From Candidatus Binatia bacterium (GTDB lineage: Bacteria > Desulfobacterota > Binatia > HRBIN30): a DNA stretch of 64,000 nucleotides. The stretch is from the NCBI GenBank assembly GCA_038245295.1, contig JBBRSP010000005.1:128001-192000 (forward strand), read 5' to 3'. Below the pieces are notes generated by a model. That model was not told the origin of the DNA. It ran no database searches and saw only the letters and a list, made by a program, of their open reading frames with translations. Numbering within the stretch: position 1 is the first letter of the stretch; the number at the start of each line of letters is the position of its first letter. Made by a program: the position numbers and the translations under genes. Positions 27,768 to 40,579 of this stretch are shown here, in pieces.

Positions 27768-27780
27768 GCCGTAGGTGTGT

Positions 27781-28241
27781 CGTCCCGGCGCAGGCCGGGA
27801 CCCAGTGTTGGAATCGAATCTGCGCTCGGGCTTGGTCTCCACTACTGGATCCCGGCCCAATGTCGTTAAGTTCGCGGTCGACTCGGGTAGCTCTGGTGAA
27901 AACCGGCAAGTTCTCATTCTCGATCCTGCTTCGAAAGTTTCCTGGGTGACTGGCCTGCGGACCCGACGTTGAGCCAGAGCGGAGCAAGAGCGCAGGCTAA
28001 AGCCGGGCGCGGCTTTGCACCTAGATTGGATGGCACGCCGCGGGGCATGACCACTGAATTCTGGGTCCCTGGCCCACCGAAGGCCAGGCGAAGGCGGGTC
28101 CATTCTGGATGCGTTGAGGCCGGTAACCCGTCGTTGCACCGGCGGGCCTCGCAAGCAGCGCGAACGCATCGAGAACCGCGAACCCAGGATCCAGGATGAG
28201 AACGGTTAACTTAACGGCGCTGGATCCCAGCCTGCGTGGGA
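27781..28241. repeat. CGTC-type REP doublet split by an insertion
   Basis: arm CGTCCCGGCGCAGGCCGGGACCCAG; partner arm CTGGATCCCGGCC|...|TGCGTGGGA is interrupted. Confidence 0.7.
27858..28222. mobile_element. 365-bp non-autonomous IS4-like element (MITE)
   Basis: TIRs CAATGTCGTTAAGTT / AACTTAACGGCGCTG (12/15); 10-bp flanking direct repeat GATCCC(G/A)GCC; no transposase ORF. Confidence 0.75.
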
Positions 28242-28399
28242 GATATTGGACTCATCCCCTTTTCCCGCCCTGTTCATGATTTCCCTCGAGAGTTCCCGTT
28301 CTTGCTTGATGCGCGGCTGCGGCCGCGGCGACCCAGCATCTCATCGGCGGTTGCCTGCCACAAGCCGATGTTGGTGTCGCGCGCTTCCAAACAGAGGCA

Positions 28400-28448
28400 G
28401 GCAGTAGGCAGCAGGCAATAGGCAATAGGCAGGAGGCAGGAGGCAGAC
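28400..28448 (+). repeat. heptamer tandem repeat GGCARNA x7
   Basis: GGCAGTA GGCAGCA GGCAATA GGCAATA GGCAGGA GGCAGGA GGCAGAC. Confidence 0.85.
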
Positions 28449-28449
28449 G

Positions 28450-28598
28450 CTACTGTCGCGTCGCGCAACCAGCTTCAAAAATTGTTTACACCATAGTTTC
28501 TTGAAGCGGAGGGGGTGTAAATTAGCGGTACTCTAGGTCTCCTCACGCGACCGTCTACGCAACTAATATTACATGCCGTCGCGTCAGTTTCCTGACGC
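28450..28598 (-). repeat. degenerate inverted copies of the 82-bp unit
   Basis: minus strand reads GGTCGCGTGAGGAGACCTAGAGTACCGCTAATTTACA...CGCTTCAAGAAAC, which aligns with the plus-strand units. Confidence 0.65.
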
Positions 28599-28663
28599 AA
28601 AATGTGCGCCTGGACGCCGTCGCGGCACGAAAAGACCCAAAAACCCAGCTTTCAGGCGTGGTC

Positions 28664-28922
28664 GCTTCAATAAACCATACGTAAAATAATTCACACTAAT
28701 CGGCGCGTGAAGCGCCGTAGTGCGCCCCTAATTTTACGTATGCTCGCTTCAAGAAACCATAGGTAAGATGATTCCCACTAATGGGCGCGTGAAGCGCCAT
28801 AGTGTACCCCTAATTTTACGTATGCTCGCTTCAAGAAACGATACGTAGGATGATTCTTGCTAATGCAAGCGTGAATCGCTGAAGCCCCGAACTAATCCAG
28901 CGCAGGGCCGCTTCTAGAAACC
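28664..28922 (+). repeat. 82-bp tandem repeat array of hairpin-forming units (3 full copies plus the start of a 4th)
   Basis: GCTTC(A/T)A(G/T)AAAC recurs at 28664, 28746, 28828 and 28910; units 1 and 2 match at 73/82. Confidence 0.9.
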
Positions 28923-28963
28923 TGGCTTGAAACAACACATGCGAGCCACCAATCCAAGCCCAT

Positions 28964-28987
28964 GGGAGCGCCGGTCTCCAGACCGGC
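28964..28987. repeat. REP-like palindrome
   Basis: GGGAGCGCCGGTCTCCAGACCGGC; a partial second copy lies about 45 bp downstream. Confidence 0.55.
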
Positions 28988-29638: not shown

Positions 29639-29920
29639 GTGCAGTTCGAGTGGGATCCGGCCAAGGAGCGCGAAAATCGCCTGCGGCACGGAGTCGCCTT
29701 CGATCTGGCTTCGAGTGTGTTCGACGACCCTGACTTGGTGCTCGCCGAGGATTCAGCGCATAGCGCCACCGAGCGTCGCTACTTCGCCTTTGGCGAAGCG
29801 GGCAGCGGGATCCTGACAGTGCGTTTCACCGTTCGCGGCGAAAGGATTCGTATCATCGGTGCGGGATACTGGCGCAAAGGAAGAGACTTCTATGAAAAAG
29901 CGAATCGAATACACCGATGA
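29639..29920 (+). CDS. BrnT-family toxin (DUF497)
   Basis: FEWDPAKERENRLRHGVAF, HSATERRY and RIRIIGAGYWRKG motifs. Confidence 0.92.
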   Translation: MQFEWDPAKERENRLRHGVAFDLASSVFDDPDLVLAEDSAHSATERRYFAFGEAGSGILTVRFTVRGERIRIIGAGYWRKGRDFYEKANRIHR

Positions 29921-30125
29921 ACCGATGACGATCGGCCGGGTCGTCAGCCGCGACATCCTGCCTGGGCACGGTGGTGCACGCTCCGGTGCCGGTCGTCCGC
30001 CCTCCGGCAAAAGTCCGCTGACGCTTCGACTTCCGCCCAAGCTGATCGAGGTGGTGCGACGCCAGGCGCGGAAGGCCGGGCAATCCGTATCGGACTTCGT
30101 CGCCGCCAAGCTGCAGGGCAGCTGA
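29892..30125 (+). CDS. antitoxin, CopG/RHH-type
   Basis: overlaps the toxin 3' end; MKKRIEYTDEP N-terminus; C-terminal LTLRLP...ARKAGQSVSDFV ribbon-helix-helix. Confidence 0.82.
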   Translation: MKKRIEYTDEPMTIGRVVSRDILPGHGGARSGAGRPPSGKSPLTLRLPPKLIEVVRRQARKAGQSVSDFVAAKLQGS

Positions 30126-30313
30126 GTAGTTGCCCATCGAAGCCCCTGAGCACGTCCGAGTGCACGGGAGGTATCGTCTATTCGGGCGATTCTCCTGCGA
30201 GCTGAAGTCGGCACGCCGACGGACAGGCCCCGAGGGCGGAGAAACGAGCTGCGTCCTCGTTCCCGAGCCGCATCCGGCGGGCAGGAGAATCGCGAGAACC
30301 GCGTCCGCGTCCC

Positions 30314-30576
30314 TAAATCGCTCCGGTCACGTTATCGCAGTCGACTGGGACGGTCGACTCAGTGACCTCTACGATTTCAGCGCCGAGGCGACCGCGCCGA
30401 TATTCTCGACGATTCCATACGCGGCAATCGTGCAGCTCGGGTTCAGCGGGGGTGCCCCCGCTGGATCGATATTTAAAGACACATTCTCCTTTTCCTTGAC
30501 CGCCCCCGACGACACCCGGCTGGAGTGTCCGGGGCTGTACCTCGGAGTCGAGCCGCCAGCGGGGGACCTCCTCTAG
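30314..30576 (+). pseudogene. start-less C-terminal gene fragment
   Basis: protein-like frame HVIAVDWDGRLSDLYDF...PPAGDLL begins just after a REP arm (30288-30313) and stops 2 nt before the next ATG. Confidence 0.4.
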
Positions 30577-30578
30577 AA

Positions 30579-31892
30579 ATGGACCGTACGCCGTTCATAG
30601 GGATTGTGGCGCATTTGGGCCTTGTGCTGCTGGCCCCACCATTATTCGCACATGCCGCTCCTGGGAGTGACGCGACTCATCGACTGCAGGGGCAATCAGT
30701 AGAGAGGTCGATGCAAGTCGTCGAGACTGAGCACTGGGAAGCGCCCACGATCCCATCGCGGTGGCATGTGGGCAAAGCTGCTGTTGAAAGTGAACGGCAA
30801 GCCGGAGAGGTCTCGCGTAAGGTGGCTGAGGCGCTGTTGGACTCAGTCGAGCGAGAGGCTTTAGTGATGCCTGAGGTTTCGGGAGAAGCGCTCCTTAGAC
30901 GAGCGAGCCGGCTACTCGACCTAGCATACTGGGTCGGCGAAACGGACGGCTACGGAAATCAGGTGCTGGCGACTAGAGCCGTGGGAATCGCAGCGACGGC
31001 TCTTGCACGTCTGGTGGCTGACACGTCGTTCGACTTAGGGCGAGTGAGGGTAGAATTGGGTCGTTGTCGACCTCCTTTCGACGCCCCCAGCCGTCGAGCC
31101 AAGGTCATGAACATCGAGTTGGGGCGAGATGCTCTACCGACGGACAGGATTTCAACCGATGCAGAGTTGCAGATGGTCTGGCGCGATCACGCTTTGGCGG
31201 CTTTGGCAGCGTACAACGCGGTGAAGACGGCCCAACCAGGTCTGCCTACCGACAGAACTCTAAGGACGCAACAAAATAGGAACGACACTCCTACGAGTAC
31301 TGATCGCGTTTCTACCGCGGACTCTGTTTCCGATAGCGCTTTTCGAGGGGATGCGTTTGATTGGTGTCCTAAACCGCAAACGACACGCCGTTGCTGGGAA
31401 CACGGTAGGCATACTGAAGTTCTTGCGACGACACGCCCAGTAGGAAGAGTGATCCGTGCGGAAGCGCTGTTGTTGGTGCGAGACAAGCTCGGGGGGTTTC
31501 CTGAGGTTCGCGATACGGTCGATGACGAGGCTGTCCTTTCCGGGGCTCAGCGTGCCTTTCGAACGGCGCTGCGCCTTAACGTTGGTTTGGGTTTGTCGAG
31601 CCAGGCTTTGCTCGCGGGTGACACATACGACCAGATTCGCGCGGGTCGATACGTGGACTATGACAGCGAACTCGCGAGGCAATGGGAGCGGCGGCAGGAA
31701 GGAACAACTGGGAGTTCCCCTGGTGCATCGACAAGTCCGTTGGTCGTTCCACGGGCGGTGGACGTTCCCACTCCGACCGTACCGGAGCCGACGGCCGCTG
31801 GTAGTACTACGACAAACAACGGTGTGCTGGCGGCCTGTCTTGCGATCGCGGTGCTGCTGCTCGTCTTCGGATCGAGGAAATTCGAGTGGTGA
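30579..31892 (+). CDS. secreted hypothetical protein with C-terminal membrane anchor
   Basis: signal peptide (LLAPPLFAHA), Pro/Thr linker, C-terminal TM plus SRK; codon usage visibly less GC3-biased than the flanking housekeeping genes. Confidence 0.7.
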   Translation: MDRTPFIGIVAHLGLVLLAPPLFAHAAPGSDATHRLQGQSVERSMQVVETEHWEAPTIPSRWHVGKAAVESERQAGEVSRKVAEALLDSVEREALVMPEVSGEALLRRASRLLDLAYWVGETDGYGNQVLATRAVGIAATALARLVADTSFDLGRVRVELGRCRPPFDAPSRRAKVMNIELGRDALPTDRISTDAELQMVWRDHALAALAAYNAVKTAQPGLPTDRTLRTQQNRNDTPTSTDRVSTADSVSDSAFRGDAFDWCPKPQTTRRCWEHGRHTEVLATTRPVGRVIRAEALLLVRDKLGGFPEVRDTVDDEAVLSGAQRAFRTALRLNVGLGLSSQALLAGDTYDQIRAGRYVDYDSELARQWERRQEGTTGSSPGASTSPLVVPRAVDVPTPTVPEPTAAGSTTTNNGVLAACLAIAVLLLVFGSRKFEW

Positions 31893-32019
31893 AGCTTCCA
31901 AATTGGTCGCCGGGAGTGACTCTCCGGGACCAACAATGCCTCGGAAGTGCAAGTAATTGTCCTGGACGGAGGCAGCGAGTCAACCGGACACAACGGCCCA
32001 CGTTGGGGAAGAGGTACTC

Positions 32020-32096
32020 GAGGCGCACCATAACTGGACATCCACCCGACGCATCGACGAGGCGCACCATACTGGACATCCACCCGACGCATCGAC
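32020..32096 (+). repeat. 38/39-bp tandem duplication containing CTGGACATCCACC
   Basis: GAGGCGCACCATA(A)CTGGACATCCACCCGACGCATCGAC x2. Confidence 0.9.
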
Positions 32097-32219
32097 GCGA
32101 CGGGATCGCCACCCGGCCCAGCGTTCCACTCAGATCGGGCCTACTACACAATGGACTAATGGAAACGACGCCGTTCGTCGGTGGGGTGTCCAGGTAACCG
32201 CGGCGCGCGCAACTCGCGA

Positions 32220-32288
32220 TGCGGCTTGAAGAGCGAGTGTGTGTTCAGGCATGTACTGGCACGGCAATCGGTCGGAGGCGGCCCATGA
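32220..32288 (+). promoter_or_regulatory. conserved leader copy 1 (inverted partner at 39451-39520)
   Basis: 46/65 ungapped identity including the core TGTTCAGGCATGTA, ending in SD plus ATG. Confidence 0.55.
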
Positions 32289-32355
32289 ATAGAGATCGTG
32301 CGTCTGCATCGTCATTTGGTTGGTGTCCCCGCTCGCGTGGGGTTTAGGATACCCG

Positions 32356-34455
32356 ATGAACGGAGAAACCTTTGCGATCGCGGAACGAGACCGCAGCCCC
32401 GCCTGGTACGACGCCAGCCGCCAGGATTTTCTGGAAGATCCAAGTGAGCGTATTGCCCAAAAGCTGGCCGGACGCGCCGCCGCTGAGGCGTTTGAGACCG
32501 GACCGGACCAGTTCAAGGAGTGGAAAGAGAGCGTCGATGTCCTGAAACGGCCTTTCGACCAATCGGGTTTAGTGGACGAGGCCGAGGCGCGGCTTCGCCT
32601 GGTCCGCAATGCCGTCGCCGACATACCCGATGTGGCCGATGTCGTGCTCGAGTTCGACTTTCGTCGCCGTGGCCTACGGCTCGACTGCGTCCTGCTCGCC
32701 CAAGGGGCATTGTTCGTGGTGGAGTTTAAGCGAACGAAGATCACGGCTGCCGACCGCGATCAGGTGATGAACTATGCGATCAACCTAATCGAGTTTCATC
32801 GCGTCACACGGGAATGGGCCGACAGCGGTGCTTTGATCGTCCCCGTGCTTGTGCTGACCAAAGGGAAAGCCCGTGCGACCGAGTCTCCGGACTTCGCTTC
32901 CCCGCCATGGGCATCCATGCTGGCCAAACCCCTCGAGTGCAGTGGCGGTGACGGCCTGCGTGAGGTTCTGGTGCGTGCGCTCGAACGCCGGAACACGACG
33001 GCGAGCTGCGCCAGGACCCGATGGCTGGCCTCGCCATTTTCGCCATCGTCATCGATCGTCGACGCGGCGTTGTCGCTGTACGGTCAGCATGACGTCGCCG
33101 CCATCGAAGCCCACGCGGCTCCCAAGCAGGCTATCGACGAGAACACAGGCGAGATCGTAGATGTTGTCCGGGCGACCCTCGCCGCGAACGAACACCGAAT
33201 CATTTTCCTCTCCGGGGCACCGGGGTCCGGTAAGACGCTCGTCGGCCTCAATCTCGCGTTCAGCCAGCTGTTGAGCGCACAGACAGTATTCGTGACGGGA
33301 AATGCTCCACTGGTAGAAGTGCTACAAGCGGCGCTGCAATCGTCATATCGACTGGGCGGCAAGAGCGGCGCCACTAAGGTGATCACCGGGTACCCGAAGA
33401 AGGGCTTCAAACCCATCGTCTCGGCGAGCACGTTCAAGATCGTCAAAGCTCATCAGTTCCTGGGCAAACGCGGCCAAGCGCATGGCCAGGAGGACGGCCG
33501 CGTCGTCGTATTCGATGAAGCTCAGCGCACCTACGAGAAGGGCCGGACCGTTGTAGGGCAGAAGCTGGAAGACCACGAAGCGGATCTGATCCTAGCAGCG
33601 CAGCGCCGGCAGTTCCCGGATGGATCCGTGGTCGTCGCGCTGATTGGGCATAACCAGGCCATCAATCGCGGCGAGCTCGGCATGATCGCGTGGTTCGACG
33701 CGGCAGAGAGACAGAAATGGCTCATCTCGGTGGGGGATGAAACGTTCGCACTTCTGCCAGAGTTCGTACGCGAGCAATGGAACGATCGCCGTTCGGGCTT
33801 GCGGCACGGGCATCTCCGTCAGTCGATGCGATTCTACCGCAACGAGGCGATCGAGAGGTGGGCTGCAGCGGTCCTCGACGCTCCCGCCGGAGACGCGGCG
33901 GTTATCGCGCAAGGCCTCGACACAGCAGGGGCAACAGTTTGGCTGACGCGCGACCTGGATGCGGCGAAACGTTGGGCCAAGGCGCTGGCGGTCGGCGGCC
34001 AGCGAAGCGGCATGATCGCGTCCGGTCAGGCGCGGCGGCTTGCGGCGCATGGGTTGTTTGTGGACCTCAAGCCGGACATTGCGACGTGGATGCTCGGCGC
34101 TTCAGGCGACTACCGTTCGTCCAATGCTTTGGAGACCGTGCAAAACCAGTATCAGGTGCAGGGACTCGAGGTGGACTACACGATCGTCTGCTGGGACCTC
34201 GATCTTCGGCGAGACGGCGACAGCTGGGTTGCCCGCCGCGTGGTCGGATCCGTATGGCAACACGACAGAGCCTTGGATGTCGCAAAGAACAGCTACCGCG
34301 TGCTGCTCACGCGCGCACGCAAAGGAATGATCATCTTTGTCCCCGATGGCGACCGCACGGAATCAGACGAGACGCGCCCACCTGTGGAGTATGATCGCAT
34401 CGCCGAGTATCTCCTGGCGTGCGGCGCTCGACGATTCATAGGTTCGGATGGCTAA
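32356..34455 (+). CDS. DUF2075 (Schlafen group 3-like) helicase with N-terminal PD-(D/E)xK-like nuclease
   Basis: LEFDF..RLDCVLL..FVVEFK; GAPGSGKT; VFDEAQR; QGLEVD; YRVLLTRARKG. Confidence 0.88.
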   Translation: MNGETFAIAERDRSPAWYDASRQDFLEDPSERIAQKLAGRAAAEAFETGPDQFKEWKESVDVLKRPFDQSGLVDEAEARLRLVRNAVADIPDVADVVLEFDFRRRGLRLDCVLLAQGALFVVEFKRTKITAADRDQVMNYAINLIEFHRVTREWADSGALIVPVLVLTKGKARATESPDFASPPWASMLAKPLECSGGDGLREVLVRALERRNTTASCARTRWLASPFSPSSSIVDAALSLYGQHDVAAIEAHAAPKQAIDENTGEIVDVVRATLAANEHRIIFLSGAPGSGKTLVGLNLAFSQLLSAQTVFVTGNAPLVEVLQAALQSSYRLGGKSGATKVITGYPKKGFKPIVSASTFKIVKAHQFLGKRGQAHGQEDGRVVVFDEAQRTYEKGRTVVGQKLEDHEADLILAAQRRQFPDGSVVVALIGHNQAINRGELGMIAWFDAAERQKWLISVGDETFALLPEFVREQWNDRRSGLRHGHLRQSMRFYRNEAIERWAAAVLDAPAGDAAVIAQGLDTAGATVWLTRDLDAAKRWAKALAVGGQRSGMIASGQARRLAAHGLFVDLKPDIATWMLGASGDYRSSNALETVQNQYQVQGLEVDYTIVCWDLDLRRDGDSWVARRVVGSVWQHDRALDVAKNSYRVLLTRARKGMIIFVPDGDRTESDETRPPVEYDRIAEYLLACGARRFIGSDG

Positions 34456-34526
34456 CAAGATCACCGACGGCCGCTGGCCTCGCGCAGGTCGATTAGGGAG
34501 GAGGTTGCGGCTCTCGCCATTCTCGT

Positions 34527-34598
34527 GGACGACTTCGAGGGACGTGGTTGGGACGACTTCGAGGGACGTGGTTGGGACGACTTCGAGGGACGTGGTTG
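34527..34598 (+). repeat. 24-bp tandem repeat x3
   Basis: GGACGACTTCGAGGGACGTGGTTG x3, identical. Confidence 0.95.
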
Positions 34599-34646
34599 TG
34601 ATTCTCGCGATTGTCCGAAGAATCGCGAGAATCGCAACCGCGTCCC
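34587..34646. repeat. REP-like palindrome with 26-bp arms
   Basis: GGGACGTGGTTGTGATTCTCGCGATT / AATCGCGAGAATCGCAACCGCGTCCC (24/26); single arms also at 30288-30313 and about 34496-34521. Confidence 0.85.
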
Positions 34647-34651
34647 CTTTG

Positions 34652-34910
34652 CGAGCCTCGCACATCCTGGAGCACACCGGAATGGTTGGGCTGGAGACGG
34701 CGATCGAGGAGACGCTGCGGGCTCCCCGTCTGGTGATCCAATCGCGATCCGATCCAGCGGCGGCGCTGCATTATCGATTATGTCGGCACTCGCGTCGGTG
34801 ACAAATGGCTGAGCGTCGTGGTCAAATACGGCGTCCTCGACGCCTTCGTGTTGACGGCCTATCTTGCCGACCAGCCGAAGAAAGGCATCCGACGATGGCC
34901 CAAACCGTGA
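34652..34910 (+). pseudogene. 5'-truncated, frameshifted RelE/BECR-like toxin
   Basis: HILEH..IEETLRAP..VIQSRSDP..HYR, then a frameshift to YVGTRVGDKWLSVVVK..AFVLTAY; overlaps the DUF2283 start. Confidence 0.7.
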
Positions 34911-35113
34911 AGATCTGGTTCGACAAGGAAGGCGACTTCCTCGAGGTGCGTTTTTCCGAGAAGCCCGGCTACATGCGCGAGACGGACAACGATGCCGTGA
35001 TGGAGCGCGTCGATGAGAGTGGCGAAGTGCTGGGCTTCACGGTCATGGCGGTGAGCAAGTTCGACAAGGCACACCCGCTGACCGTTGAACTTTCGGAGGC
35101 GTTGCGACAATGA
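34895..35113 (+). CDS. DUF2283 domain protein (putative antitoxin)
   Basis: VKIWFDKEGDFLEVRF...ERVDESGEVLGF. Confidence 0.85.
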   Translation: MAQTVKIWFDKEGDFLEVRFSEKPGYMRETDNDAVMERVDESGEVLGFTVMAVSKFDKAHPLTVELSEALRQ

Positions 35114-35616
35114 GTCGCATCCTGATCATCGCCGGCCCCAACGGTGCGGGGAAGACCACCTTCGCCCGCACCTTTCTGCCCCGTGAGCACGTGCGACAGT
35201 TCATCAACGCCGACCTGTTGGCCGCCGGCCTGTCTCCTCTCGACCCCAAGGCTGCACAGCTTGCCGCCGGCCGTCTCTTCTTATCGGAAATCGATCGCCT
35301 TGCGGCTATCGGCGCAGATTTCGCCTTCGAGAGCACCCTGAGCGGTCTGGGTTACCTGCCGCGCCTCCGGCGGTGGAAGGAGAGCGGCTACCGGGTCGAG
35401 ATCGTCTACCTAAAGCTCACCGACGTGCGCCTGGCTCTGCAACGCATCGCTTCTCGCGTTCGGAGCGGCGGGCACGATGTACCGGAGGCCGACGTCCGTC
35501 GCCGTTTCATCCGCAGCTGGAACAATTTCGAAGCGCGATATAAACCCCTCGCTGATGCGACGTGGGTCTTTGATGTAAGCGGCACCATGCCAATTCTTCT
35601 CCGGACGGAACCATGA
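35110..35616 (+). CDS. AAA/zeta-toxin-like P-loop kinase
   Basis: IIAGPNGAGKTT, FINAD, FAFESTLSG and GGHDVPE motifs. Confidence 0.9.
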   Translation: MSRILIIAGPNGAGKTTFARTFLPREHVRQFINADLLAAGLSPLDPKAAQLAAGRLFLSEIDRLAAIGADFAFESTLSGLGYLPRLRRWKESGYRVEIVYLKLTDVRLALQRIASRVRSGGHDVPEADVRRRFIRSWNNFEARYKPLADATWVFDVSGTMPILLRTEP

Positions 35617-35777
35617 AAAGCACAGCCAAAACCAAACCGCCCCAACTCGATACGCGCGCAAAGAAGATTCTGAAGTCCTTACTCGACGCACGCAAAGAAG
35701 CGGTCAAGTCGGCGCGCATGCATGGCGTGCCGGTAATCTACATGCGGGCGGGCAAGATCGTACGCGAACGCCCATGA
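35613..35777 (+). CDS. 54-aa basic partner protein (putative antitoxin), absent from the ORF track
   Basis: ATGA overlap; MKSTAK...ARMHGVPVIYMRAGKIVRERP. Confidence 0.72.
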   Translation: MKSTAKTKPPQLDTRAKKILKSLLDARKEAVKSARMHGVPVIYMRAGKIVRERP

Positions 35778-35840
35778 TCCATCCTGTCTATCCTGTCCAT
35801 CCTGTTAAAGTCGTTCTTAGCGGTTGGTATTGAGGTAGTC

Positions 35841-37319
35841 GTGACCACCGATTCGATCATCTCCAAAGTCTGGGGCTTCTGCACGACGCTGCGCGACGAT
35901 GGCGTGGGCTACGGCGACTACCTGGAGCAGCTCACCTATCTGATCTTTCTCAAGATGGCCGACGAGTACGGCCGGCCGCCCTATAACCGCGCGGTCGGCA
36001 TCCCTGCCGAGTATGCGTGGCCGACCTTGAAGAGCCTCAAGGGCGCGGAGCTGGAAGTCCACTACGTCACCGTGCTGCGCGAGCTTGCCGGCAAGAGCGG
36101 CATGCTGGGGCAGATCTTCACCAAGTCGCAGAACAAGATCCAGGACCCGGCCAAGCTGGCGCGTGTCGTTGGCATGGTGGACGAGACGGAATGGATCGTC
36201 CTCGGCGCCGACACCAAGGGCGAGATCTACGAAGGGCTGCTGGAGAAGAACGCCGAGGATACCAAGTCGGGCGCCGGCCAATACTTCACGCCGCGCGCCT
36301 TGATCAAAGCCATGGTCGAGTGTGTGCGCCCGCAGCCGGACAAGACCATCGCCGACCCGGCGTGCGGCACGGGAGGATTCTTTCTCGCCGTCTACGATCA
36401 CCTGATCGCCAACCACGAGCTCAACAAGGCGCAGAAGGCGTTTCTGAAACACGAAATGTTCCACGGCAACGAGATCGTCGCCAACACGCGGCGGCTCTGC
36501 CTGATGAACATGTTCTTGCACAACATCGGCGAGATCGACGGCGAGAGCCCCATCTCGTCAAACGACGCGCTGATCGCCGACAGCGGCAAACGCTTCGACT
36601 ACGTCCTGGGCAACCCGCCCTTCGGCAAGAAGAGCAGCATGACCTTTACCAACGAGGAAGGTGAGCAGGAGAAGGACGACCTCGTCTACAACCGCCAGGA
36701 TTTCTGGGCGACCACCGCCAACAAGCAGCTCAACTTCCTACAACACATCCGCACCATGCTGAAGACGACGGGAAGCGCGGCGGTCGTCATGCCCGACAAT
36801 GTCCTGTTCGAGGGCGGTGTCGGCGAAACCGTGCGCAAGAAGCTGCTCGAGAACACCGAGCTCCACACCATCCTGCGCCTGCCGACGGGCATCTTCTACG
36901 CCAACGGCGTCAAGGCAAACGTCCTCTTCTTCGACAACAAACCGGCGGCGAAAGAGCCGTGGACGAAGGACATCTGGTACTACGACTATCGCACCAACGT
37001 GCACCACACGCTGAAGCGCAAGCCCATGCGCTTCGAAGATCTCGCCGAGTTCATCGAGTGCTACCACCCGGCCAACCGCCACGTCCGCAAAGAAACCTGG
37101 CACCCCGAGACCAACCCCGAGGGCCGCTGGCGCAAATACACCCACGCCGACATCACCGCCCGCGACAAAACCAGCCTCGACCTCTTCTGGCTGAAAGACC
37201 GGAGCCTCGCCGACCTGGACAATCTCCCGGACCCGAAAGACCTCGCCGAAGAGATCGTCGAGAACATCGAAGCCGGGCTAAACAACTTCCGCACCGTACT
37301 GGCGGCGCTGGGGAAATGA
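35841..37319 (+). CDS. hsdM: type I restriction-modification methyltransferase subunit
   Basis: YLEQLTYLIFLKM, GAGQYFTPR, DPACGTGGF, NPPF and LRLPTGIFY motifs. Confidence 0.95.
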   Translation: MTTDSIISKVWGFCTTLRDDGVGYGDYLEQLTYLIFLKMADEYGRPPYNRAVGIPAEYAWPTLKSLKGAELEVHYVTVLRELAGKSGMLGQIFTKSQNKIQDPAKLARVVGMVDETEWIVLGADTKGEIYEGLLEKNAEDTKSGAGQYFTPRALIKAMVECVRPQPDKTIADPACGTGGFFLAVYDHLIANHELNKAQKAFLKHEMFHGNEIVANTRRLCLMNMFLHNIGEIDGESPISSNDALIADSGKRFDYVLGNPPFGKKSSMTFTNEEGEQEKDDLVYNRQDFWATTANKQLNFLQHIRTMLKTTGSAAVVMPDNVLFEGGVGETVRKKLLENTELHTILRLPTGIFYANGVKANVLFFDNKPAAKEPWTKDIWYYDYRTNVHHTLKRKPMRFEDLAEFIECYHPANRHVRKETWHPETNPEGRWRKYTHADITARDKTSLDLFWLKDRSLADLDNLPDPKDLAEEIVENIEAGLNNFRTVLAALGK

Positions 37320-39676: not shown

Positions 39677-40579
39677 ATGCCGACGGCGTTGCACGAGTCT
39701 CTGCTCTACCTCTTCCGTAACCGCCCGGCGCTTGCTCCTGAGCTGTTGCAGGAGGCGCTCGGTCTCGTGTTGCCCGAGCATACCGACGTGCGCATCGAGT
39801 CGGCTGATTTCTCCAATCTGCAAGCCGCCGAGTATCACGCCGATCTGGTCGTGCTGCTGAGTCACGGCAAGCCGGTGCACGGTATCGTTGTCGAGGTGCA
39901 ACGGCAGCCGAGTCCGGACAAGCAGTTCTCGTGGCCGCTGTACGTGGCCGGGATGCGCACGCGCTTTCGTTGCCCGGTGATGCTGTTCGTTGTGACAGCC
40001 GACGAGACGGTAGCGCGCTGGGCGGCTCGACCGATCGATCTGGGCGGCGGCAATTTGTTCGTGCCCATGGTGCTGGGGCCGGCAGCGGTTCCGGAGATTA
40101 CCGACCGGCAGCGGGCGGCGGCGGAGCCGGAGCTCGCAGTGCTGTCCGCCATGGCGCACGGCCGGGACAACGACGTCGAAAAGGTTACAGCAATCGCGAC
40201 CAATGCCATGATGGCCAGTCTGGCACTCGACGACGAGCGGGCAACGTTGTATTTCGATTTCATCCGAGCGTCGCTGAGCCAAGCGGCAAAGGAGGCATTG
40301 CAGGCGATGGACCCGAGCAAATACGAGTACCAGAGCGAATTCGCGCGACGCTACTTCGCCGAGGGCATTGCCGAGGGCGAGGCACGCGGCGAAGCGAGAG
40401 GCGAAGCCCGCGGCGAAGCGAAAGGACGTCTGACAATGGTTCTTCGTCAGCTGACGGTTCGCTTCGGCGCGTTGCCACCGCGGGCCGAAGAGCGTGTCCG
40501 TGCCGCGTCGATCGAAGAGCTCGACGCCATCGCCGAACGAGTCCTCAGCGCCGCCAGTCTCGACGAGGCCATCGGGTAA
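39677..40579 (+). CDS. Rpn-like PD-(D/E)xK nuclease-family protein with DUF4351-like C-terminus
   Basis: EYHADLVVLL..IVVEVQ, PELAVLSAMAHG, GEAR repeats and LRQLTVRFG..ASIEEL. Confidence 0.85.
   Translation: MPTALHESLLYLFRNRPALAPELLQEALGLVLPEHTDVRIESADFSNLQAAEYHADLVVLLSHGKPVHGIVVEVQRQPSPDKQFSWPLYVAGMRTRFRCPVMLFVVTADETVARWAARPIDLGGGNLFVPMVLGPAAVPEITDRQRAAAEPELAVLSAMAHGRDNDVEKVTAIATNAMMASLALDDERATLYFDFIRASLSQAAKEALQAMDPSKYEYQSEFARRYFAEGIAEGEARGEARGEARGEAKGRLTMVLRQLTVRFGALPPRAEERVRAASIEELDAIAERVLSAASLDEAIG

Follow-up and report, generated by a model that had tools for sequence, protein, structure and literature searches.

An array of 82-bp repeat units in the genome of a Candidatus Binatia bacterium is probably the orphaned upstream docking or enhancer array of a gene cassette encoding an all-helical protein, and would act as double-stranded DNA. 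The window, a 64-kb stretch of the 6.6-Mb assembly (G000:C5:128001-192000), is the reference for all coordinates given without a contig. In the same genome and in related ones, non-coding arrays of the same narrow period and unrelated sequence lie upstream of this one gene family. The link from the 82-bp array to these cassettes is one of geometry only: its profile of internal lags has a correlation of 0.64 with the average profile of 30 gene-linked arrays, a value reached by 0/600 permutations.

A non-coding module present in two copies

The array lies in a 526-bp non-coding module (28448..28973, no strand assigned) delimited by homology to a second copy on contig C9 (G000:C9:164726-165169), which is 89% identical and has one unit fewer. 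The homology sets in at 28448 and runs to 28972-28973, the point at which the C5 copy meets a REP-like hairpin. The flanks of the two copies are unrelated, the left boundary is sharp, and both copies are surrounded by other repeat families. As the initial annotation had described, the block is ORF-free and AT-richer: no ORF of at least 70 aa was found at 28199-28914, and G+C content is 51% in the module and 48% in the array, against ~62% for the window. All six frames are interrupted by stops, which rules out a coding repeat as the identity of the array. A replication terminus was also rejected, since contig C5 has no skew switch.

On one side of the C5 copy lies repeat debris and on the other a toxin-antitoxin and defense cluster, a setting that had been taken for the edge of an island. 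The C9 copy speaks against this, as it lies amid housekeeping-type genes, with an MFS gene on one side and a 693-aa ORF that has no name on the other. Tabulating the genes beside the copies, as proposed initially, revealed no gene common to the C5 and C9 flanks.

In the sequencing run that holds the module best, and that may be the source sample, further repeat variants are present, and three contigs run past 28972 in the same way as C9. These variants and contigs hint at additional copies and at a slightly longer right end, maybe 15-20 bp further. A 30-letter loose-end consensus from this run has a faint likeness to the run-up of the promoter word described below and no convincing match in the assembly, and we give it no weight. 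Two other runs (X2 and X3) hold a small share only and give no evidence of habitat.

Several other features of this neighborhood were recorded. A run of 7-bp repeats (AGGCAAT type, 28399-28454) abuts the left end of the module and belongs to a family dispersed in G000. Nested hairpin repeats occupy 27780-28240, where a REP-like hairpin is split by an element whose ends resemble GTTAAGTT/AACTTAAC, and pieces of these repeats are found on many contigs. The cluster at 29639-37319 encodes BrnT with an RHH-like partner, a Schlafen group 3 helicase, a DUF2283 protein, a zeta-like AAA protein and an HsdM methyltransferase. A 300-aa ORF at 39677-40579 is 70% identical to a DUF4351-bearing gene near the array on C10 and has four paralogs in the genome. 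Elsewhere in the assembly, CRISPR arrays of period 61, unrelated to the 82-bp repeat, lie at contig ends (G000:C12:8-408 and C30:1-481).

Helically phased anatomy of the repeat units

Four plus-strand cores, at 28664, 28746, 28828 and 28910, recur at a period of exactly 82 bp. The best self-match in the window at this period is 64/70, above the maximum of 41/70 over 20 shuffled windows, so that the periodic motif reported initially is confirmed. Unit 1, taken from core to core (28664..28745, plus strand), consists of two 41-bp halves. It contains a dyad at 28676..28742 (no strand assigned), read from the sequence and its fold and centered on 28709, in which perfect 12-bp outer arms (28676-28687 and 28731-28742) surround a GGCGC-GTGAA-GCGCC palindrome. 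Unit 2 (28746..28827, plus strand; dyad axis 28750) matches unit 1 at 73/82, reproducing the earlier figure. Unit 3 (28828..28909, plus strand; dyad axis 28832) is diverged but in register, also as reported, and matches at 53-54/82. The fourth core opens a partial unit (28910..28939, plus strand). The CACTA/GGCGC hairpin that had been ascribed to each unit is present in units 1 and 2 only.

Two minus-strand units had been proposed as well, of which the one with its motif at 28507 is a full inverted unit (28496..28548, minus strand; dyad axis 28503). It has 8-bp arms around its core and the same GCGTGA-N17-CTAAT-N13-core spacing as the plus-strand units, a spacing held by 7/7 genome matches, all inside the two module copies. 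The other, at 28598-28587, is a hairpin rather than a repeat unit (28581..28598, no strand assigned), with 7-bp arms and a 4-nt loop that reads TTTC in the C5 copy and its reverse complement, GAAA, in the C9 copy, where the motif is gone.

Dyad axes lie at the cores (28668, 28750 and 28832) and between cores (28709), giving one axis every 41 bp. Over the three units the dyad p values are 0.0005, 0.003 and 0.14, the dyad of unit 3 being not significant alone. Self-identity at lag 41 is 0.44 in unit 2 (36/82, p 0.006), 0.41 in unit 3 (p 0.013) and 0.34 in unit 1 (p 0.14), and the strongest internal lags of unit 2 are 41, then 21 and 31. A ladder of lags at 10-11, 20-21, 31-32 and 41 was reached by 0/600 permutations (p 0.002). 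The 41-bp self-repeat and the lag ladder together indicate that the unit is made of two four-turn halves. A period of 10-10.75 bp in A/T reaches only marginal significance (p 0.045 and 0.065), which weighs against the orphaned-array reading and led us to reject a general A/T bending code; the same periodicity reaches p<0.05 in 12/30 gene-linked arrays.

Searches for homologues of the repeat sequence

The search of the genome, its relatives and Rfam that had been suggested initially yielded one further copy in the genome, that on C9, no homologue in relatives and no Rfam match on the module. A profile search of the G000 contigs placed 9/9 matches within the C5 and C9 copies, and no sequence homologue was found beyond this genome or its sequencing study. 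Among relatives, blastn against 60 genomes returned one chance 25-nt match only, and the spaced pattern with 3 mismatches occurred in 0/25 family genomes. A shorter pattern matched once across 400 class genomes, whereas its reversed control matched in 7 genomes, and a sequence-only model gave partial matches in 3/51 order genomes (E 0.04-0.07). Viral scans returned 15, 0 and 30 loci, none of them tandem and none extending past the pattern. A genome collection held 1 match, within coding-like DNA; metagenomes gave 0 in one scan and at least 92 single matches in another; and plasmids and phages had no match to the repeat. No RNA data set was listed as containing it. Comparison of the module with 41 other arrays gave no convincing match: the highest raw score was 34, and in 1/41 comparisons the score beat each of 30 shuffles.

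A class of phased arrays upstream of an all-helical protein gene

A genome-wide periodicity scan of G000 revealed more non-coding arrays, with periods of 40-42, 81-83 or 123 and unrelated sequences; a constant period with variable sequence is thus seen across array families within one genome. Four G000 arrays, on C10, C67, C28 and C42, are each followed downstream by the gene for a paralog of a 230-aa protein. Those on C10, C67 and C28 have a period of 82, the signals on C67 and C28 being weak, and the helical-gene loci on C8 and C26, the latter a remnant, have no array. The gene family occurs in 13/52 order genomes (up to 11 copies), 17/301 class genomes, 2/401 phylum genomes and 600 cluster representatives.

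To the 50/54 order-search matches analyzed we added 4 new class loci and dropped 6 with less than 1 kb upstream, leaving 48. An array was called at a period of 41, 42, 82, 83 or 84 with a self-match of at least 40/60. By this measure an array lies upstream at 31/48 loci (11/17 genomes) and downstream at 0/48, among loci that include kin and paralogs and so are not independent, though their array sequences differ. At the other 17/48 loci the array is below threshold. Each of four off-period control sets gave 0/48. Up to 1500 random G000 windows gave none with a period of 41, 82 or 83, and 28 once 42 and 84 were added, from coding repeats. The period is non-triplet in 14/31 arrays, which argues that the arrays are not coding, and 30 gene-linked arrays show the half period in 25 cases and a dyad in 18 (p<0.05). 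Between the end of an array and the start codon lie 150-800 bp.

Arrays are common to 5/5 protein pairs at least 85% identical and to only 10/444 pairs below 55%. Because array similarity fades with protein identity, below about 75%, the missing sequence homology of the 82-bp array is to be expected; the array sequence of C10 and C54, for its part, was found in 0/51 other genomes. In close pairs, homology begins just past the array and stops 50-100 bp after the stop codon. Array, leader and gene have common homology boundaries in differing flanks, which indicates that the three move as a unit. Pieces of array devoid of the gene occur in G000 on C54 (from C10), C13 and C68 (from C67) and at C8:69496 (from C28), and C40 retains an array and promoter word with the gene absent.

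Like the arrays of this class, the 82-bp array is non-coding and has the period, two to five double units, the half period, the dyad and the lag ladder. A clear inverted unit is present in 0/30 gene-linked arrays, yet the 82-bp array has one. Neither a family gene (within about 1 kb) nor the promoter word was found beside the C5 or the C9 copy, and we therefore class the array as a likely orphan derivative and not as an intact member.

Other repeats in G000 touch on this class. Arrays of 41 or 81-83 bp with neither family gene nor promoter word lie at G000:C15:25833, C49:1593 (part of it also at C9:44051), C5:38475, C27:72674 and C3:114493; since several 41/82 arrays are found apart from the family gene, a second owner family is possible. 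The repeat on C36 has an 82-bp period with neither the 41-bp half nor the dyad, which shows that such a period can have another source. Like the arrays with no known owner, it counts against the orphaned-array reading. This 82/112-bp repeat occurs at C36:56148-56401, C64, C75 and the end of C40 (L163, L263), several of its copies being at contig ends, and on C36 it precedes a gene of 320 aa that resembles IS200 (weak Y1_Tnp Pfam match, E 0.0013). A dispersed hairpin family starting GGGACGTTGT is found at C9:165354-165440, C10:147666, C49:1350 and 2103, C54 and C60, with further sites on C42, C46, C56 and C12 and at C5:106433. Its members lie near several phased arrays, and at C54 one replaces the gene-proximal side.

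Promoters, activators and the helical protein

A promoter word that we take, by its motif, to be of the sigma54 type lies at most 300 bp upstream of the gene, in sense orientation, at 27/52 loci, against 3 antisense, 2 far upstream and 1 downstream in the controls. At 10/54 loci the 1.5-kb flanks contain a gene for a sigma54 activator of one subfamily, accompanied by an array in 9 cases and by the promoter word in 8. These loci are L178, L186, L188, L197, L209, L211, L213, L214, L217 and L232, and the activator gene is mostly convergent and downstream. Members of the subfamily are 48-59% identical, with a short N-terminal region and a variable C-terminal helix-turn-helix-like segment; the four examined in full differ in this segment, a label assigned by eye. 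The adjacent activators are candidate cognate readers of the arrays. No member of the subfamily was found beside the arrays of G000.

The three intact array-linked genes of G000 have a different promoter-like word in common, GAAAATAGTTGGGA, followed ~25 bp later by TTAA/ATTA and placed between array and gene. In this genome the word occurs at C10:148380, C28:66165, C67:2589, C40:46261 and C13:114096, and we presume a resemblance to an ECF-type promoter.

The helical protein is predicted to form two long antiparallel helices (pLDDT 91.6). It has no family in Pfam, NCBIfam or PDB sequences, and no recognizable DNA-binding domain was found in it; PF19775 (DUF6261) has no match in G000 or in the helical family. 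The best structural match is the SNX1 BAR domain (Z 10.0, rmsd 2.8, 148 aligned), which ties with unrelated long-helix folds. In viruses, one doubtful match was found.

RNA, recombination sites, mobile element or satellite

The initial annotation had proposed an array of processed non-coding RNAs, and its observation that pairing is kept while the stem sequence changes holds: around the core, 73.7% of 99 cells pair, against 64.9% when shuffled (4/500) and 22-54% in slid controls, and 13 cells of the core arms are altered on both sides (17/500 shuffles). The nine rows of the alignment come from two module copies with four or five types of unit, and hence represent few independent covariation events. 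The module also folds better than shuffles, and in units 2 and 3 a number of T-G mismatches could pair as G-U in an RNA of the plus strand. A structured RNA array processed into 82-nt units nonetheless appears quite unlikely to us, because the two strands fold equally well (z -4.5 and -5.1), unit 3 and the inverted unit fold no better than shuffles (z -0.2 to -1.1), and the ratio of G-T to A-C mismatches shows no strand bias (3:2 in one copy, 2:4 in the other). The loop that is reverse-complemented between the copies also counts against it, as does the result that no sigma70-type promoter or Rfam match was found at the module and no partner gene common to the copies. The dyads of gene-linked arrays, with 99 G-T to 95 A-C mismatches, show no strand bias either. 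Polymerase template switching is known to homogenize arms and invert spacers, and thereby yields dyad-keeping sequence change in which RNA function has no part (PMC8604942). Overall, the array probably acts as double-stranded DNA rather than RNA. A type III antitoxin, the more specific form of the RNA proposal, was rejected: no cognate toxin gene lies directly downstream, no Rfam family matches, and the BrnT gene at 29639 is of type II, has an RHH-like partner and is absent at C9. A CRISPR array was rejected because the whole unit repeats, instead of a constant repeat with unique spacers, and we agree with the initial annotation that the array is not CRISPR, REP or attC. The second initial proposal, sites for a recombinase or for binding as single-stranded DNA, survives in so far as protein-binding sites are concerned, as helically phased double-stranded DNA. 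Its Xer/dif form does not. Dif sites consist of two 11-bp arms with a TAA-N6-TTA inner core, and attC sites carry R'' and R' boxes. One arm of the repeat does resemble the quoted XerD arm at 8/11, and toxin-antitoxin and defense genes follow at 29639-37319. Recombination sites of the dif or attC kind, arrayed at the edge of an island, are still very improbable, as the TAA-N6-TTA core and the attC boxes are absent on either strand, no cassettes lie between units and the C9 copy has no island. The assembly contains no canonical dif-like match but one weak one.

A small but real chance is left for a non-autonomous mobile element, in which the inverted unit on the left and the three or four units on the right would be sub-terminal sites for an enzyme acting in trans. 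Such an element would account for two copies with unrelated flanks and a sharp left boundary, for the inverted arrangement of units and for the further variants in the best-holding run, which may be the source sample. The 464/PgRS element of Porphyromonas gingivalis, MITE-like, gene-less and multi-copy, has 41-nt tandem repeats inside it (PMC4596501). Going by the description in the available part of that report, however, 464/PgRS has terminal inverted repeats and 10-20 copies, whereas here two copies are assembled and no terminal inverted repeat was found (best 10/14 and 9/14). The flanks show no target duplication, and a MITE was rejected for these two reasons although the copies are gene-less and lie in unrelated flanks. 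Moreover, the 9/9 profile matches fall in the two copies and none by the 11 tyrosine or 4 serine recombinase matches, the closest tyrosine recombinase on C5 being ~61 kb off. A satellite of no function would instead begin from a 41-bp palindromic seed, duplicated and diverged by slippage or template switching and copied passively with REP/MITE debris, its period a by-product. Both copies do lie amid other repeat families, no homologue is found in other genomes, and the loop inversion and the gain or loss of units fit replication errors of the kind described in the accessible part of PMC8604942. As an origin we consider this improbable: all 7 units, the inverted unit among them, keep a fixed spacing despite changes in the intervening sequence, and arrays of unrelated sequence that accompany a single gene family have this narrow period too. 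With regard to what the two copies are now, the satellite reading overlaps the orphaned-array reading; with regard to where they came from, it does not.

Origin of the array and proposed mechanism

According to the orphaned-array reading, the array would once have been the upstream control platform of a cassette gene, in which dyads placed four turns apart could line up protein dimers on one face of the helix. It would descend from such a cassette by loss of the promoter and gene on its right-hand side. The protein that read the array may have been specific to its cassette: an activator encoded next to it or, in cassettes that lack one, the helical protein or a host activator. Slippage or unequal recombination could then have added and removed units, template switching may have kept the arms complementary, and the inverted loop may be a by-product of replication. 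The C5 and C9 copies are now probably silent relics. No enzyme for cassette mobility was identified.

Relation to known systems and meaning

Upstream activating sequences of sigma54 promoters are dyad sites, usually two or three, that lie upstream of a -24/-12 promoter and are read by an AAA+ activator. The class resembles these enhancers in its upstream dyad sites, with the promoter word at 27/52 and an activator gene at 10/54 cassette loci. It differs from them in having 5-10 phased halves, and the orphan has neither promoter nor activator.

By analogy, the array would most likely work like the sopC centromere of plasmid F, whose 43-bp repeats have been proposed to set dimers on one DNA face (PMC3177203). 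In both, tandem units of about four helical turns each carry a dyad. As far as the consulted part of that report describes it, sopC has 43-45-bp units, an invariant 16-bp palindrome and adjacent sopAB, whereas the present array has two different dyads in alternation, 41 bp apart, in free sequence, and no partition gene accompanies it. A sopC-type centromere was accordingly rejected: the array has no invariant 16-bp palindrome in 43-45-bp units and no adjacent parA/parB.

Non-coding bacterial tandem repeats of constant size and variable sequence, of 20-21 and 52 nt, have been described by Subirana and Messeguer (PMC8161180, PMC6749651), who propose that some protein requires the size of the repeat to stay constant and point out that 20-21 nt equals two helical turns (PMC8161180). 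The arrays described here are likewise non-coding and keep their period as the sequence changes. Unlike those repeats, they have periods of 41-42/82-84, a weaker 21-bp lag and a tie to one gene family; the available portions of the two reports name no partner gene or promoter. We found no account in the literature of arrays paired with the helical gene, and families of 41/42 nt may be listed in subscription papers or in supplements such as Subirana and Messeguer's tables of repeats. What is new here is the tie of the arrays to sigma54-type promoters and adjacent activators.

More tentatively, the class could consist of mobile, self-addressed cassettes. Each would combine a private array, read by its geometry of dimers every four helical turns, with a promoter of the sigma54 or another type and a long-helix protein, to which one sub-lineage would add a sigma54 activator of its own. 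The recognition helix of the activator might then diverge together with the array, giving orthogonal pairs of array and reader, and gene-less arrays might serve as portable enhancers or decoys.

As the 82-bp array itself is most likely a relic, its value is as a pointer to this class. Repeats of constant period and free sequence are a published puzzle with no identified reader, and the arrays described in this work accompany a single gene family. Activators that differ in their predicted recognition helix would provide cognate and non-cognate pairs, and the arrays may possibly be natural orthogonal enhancers.
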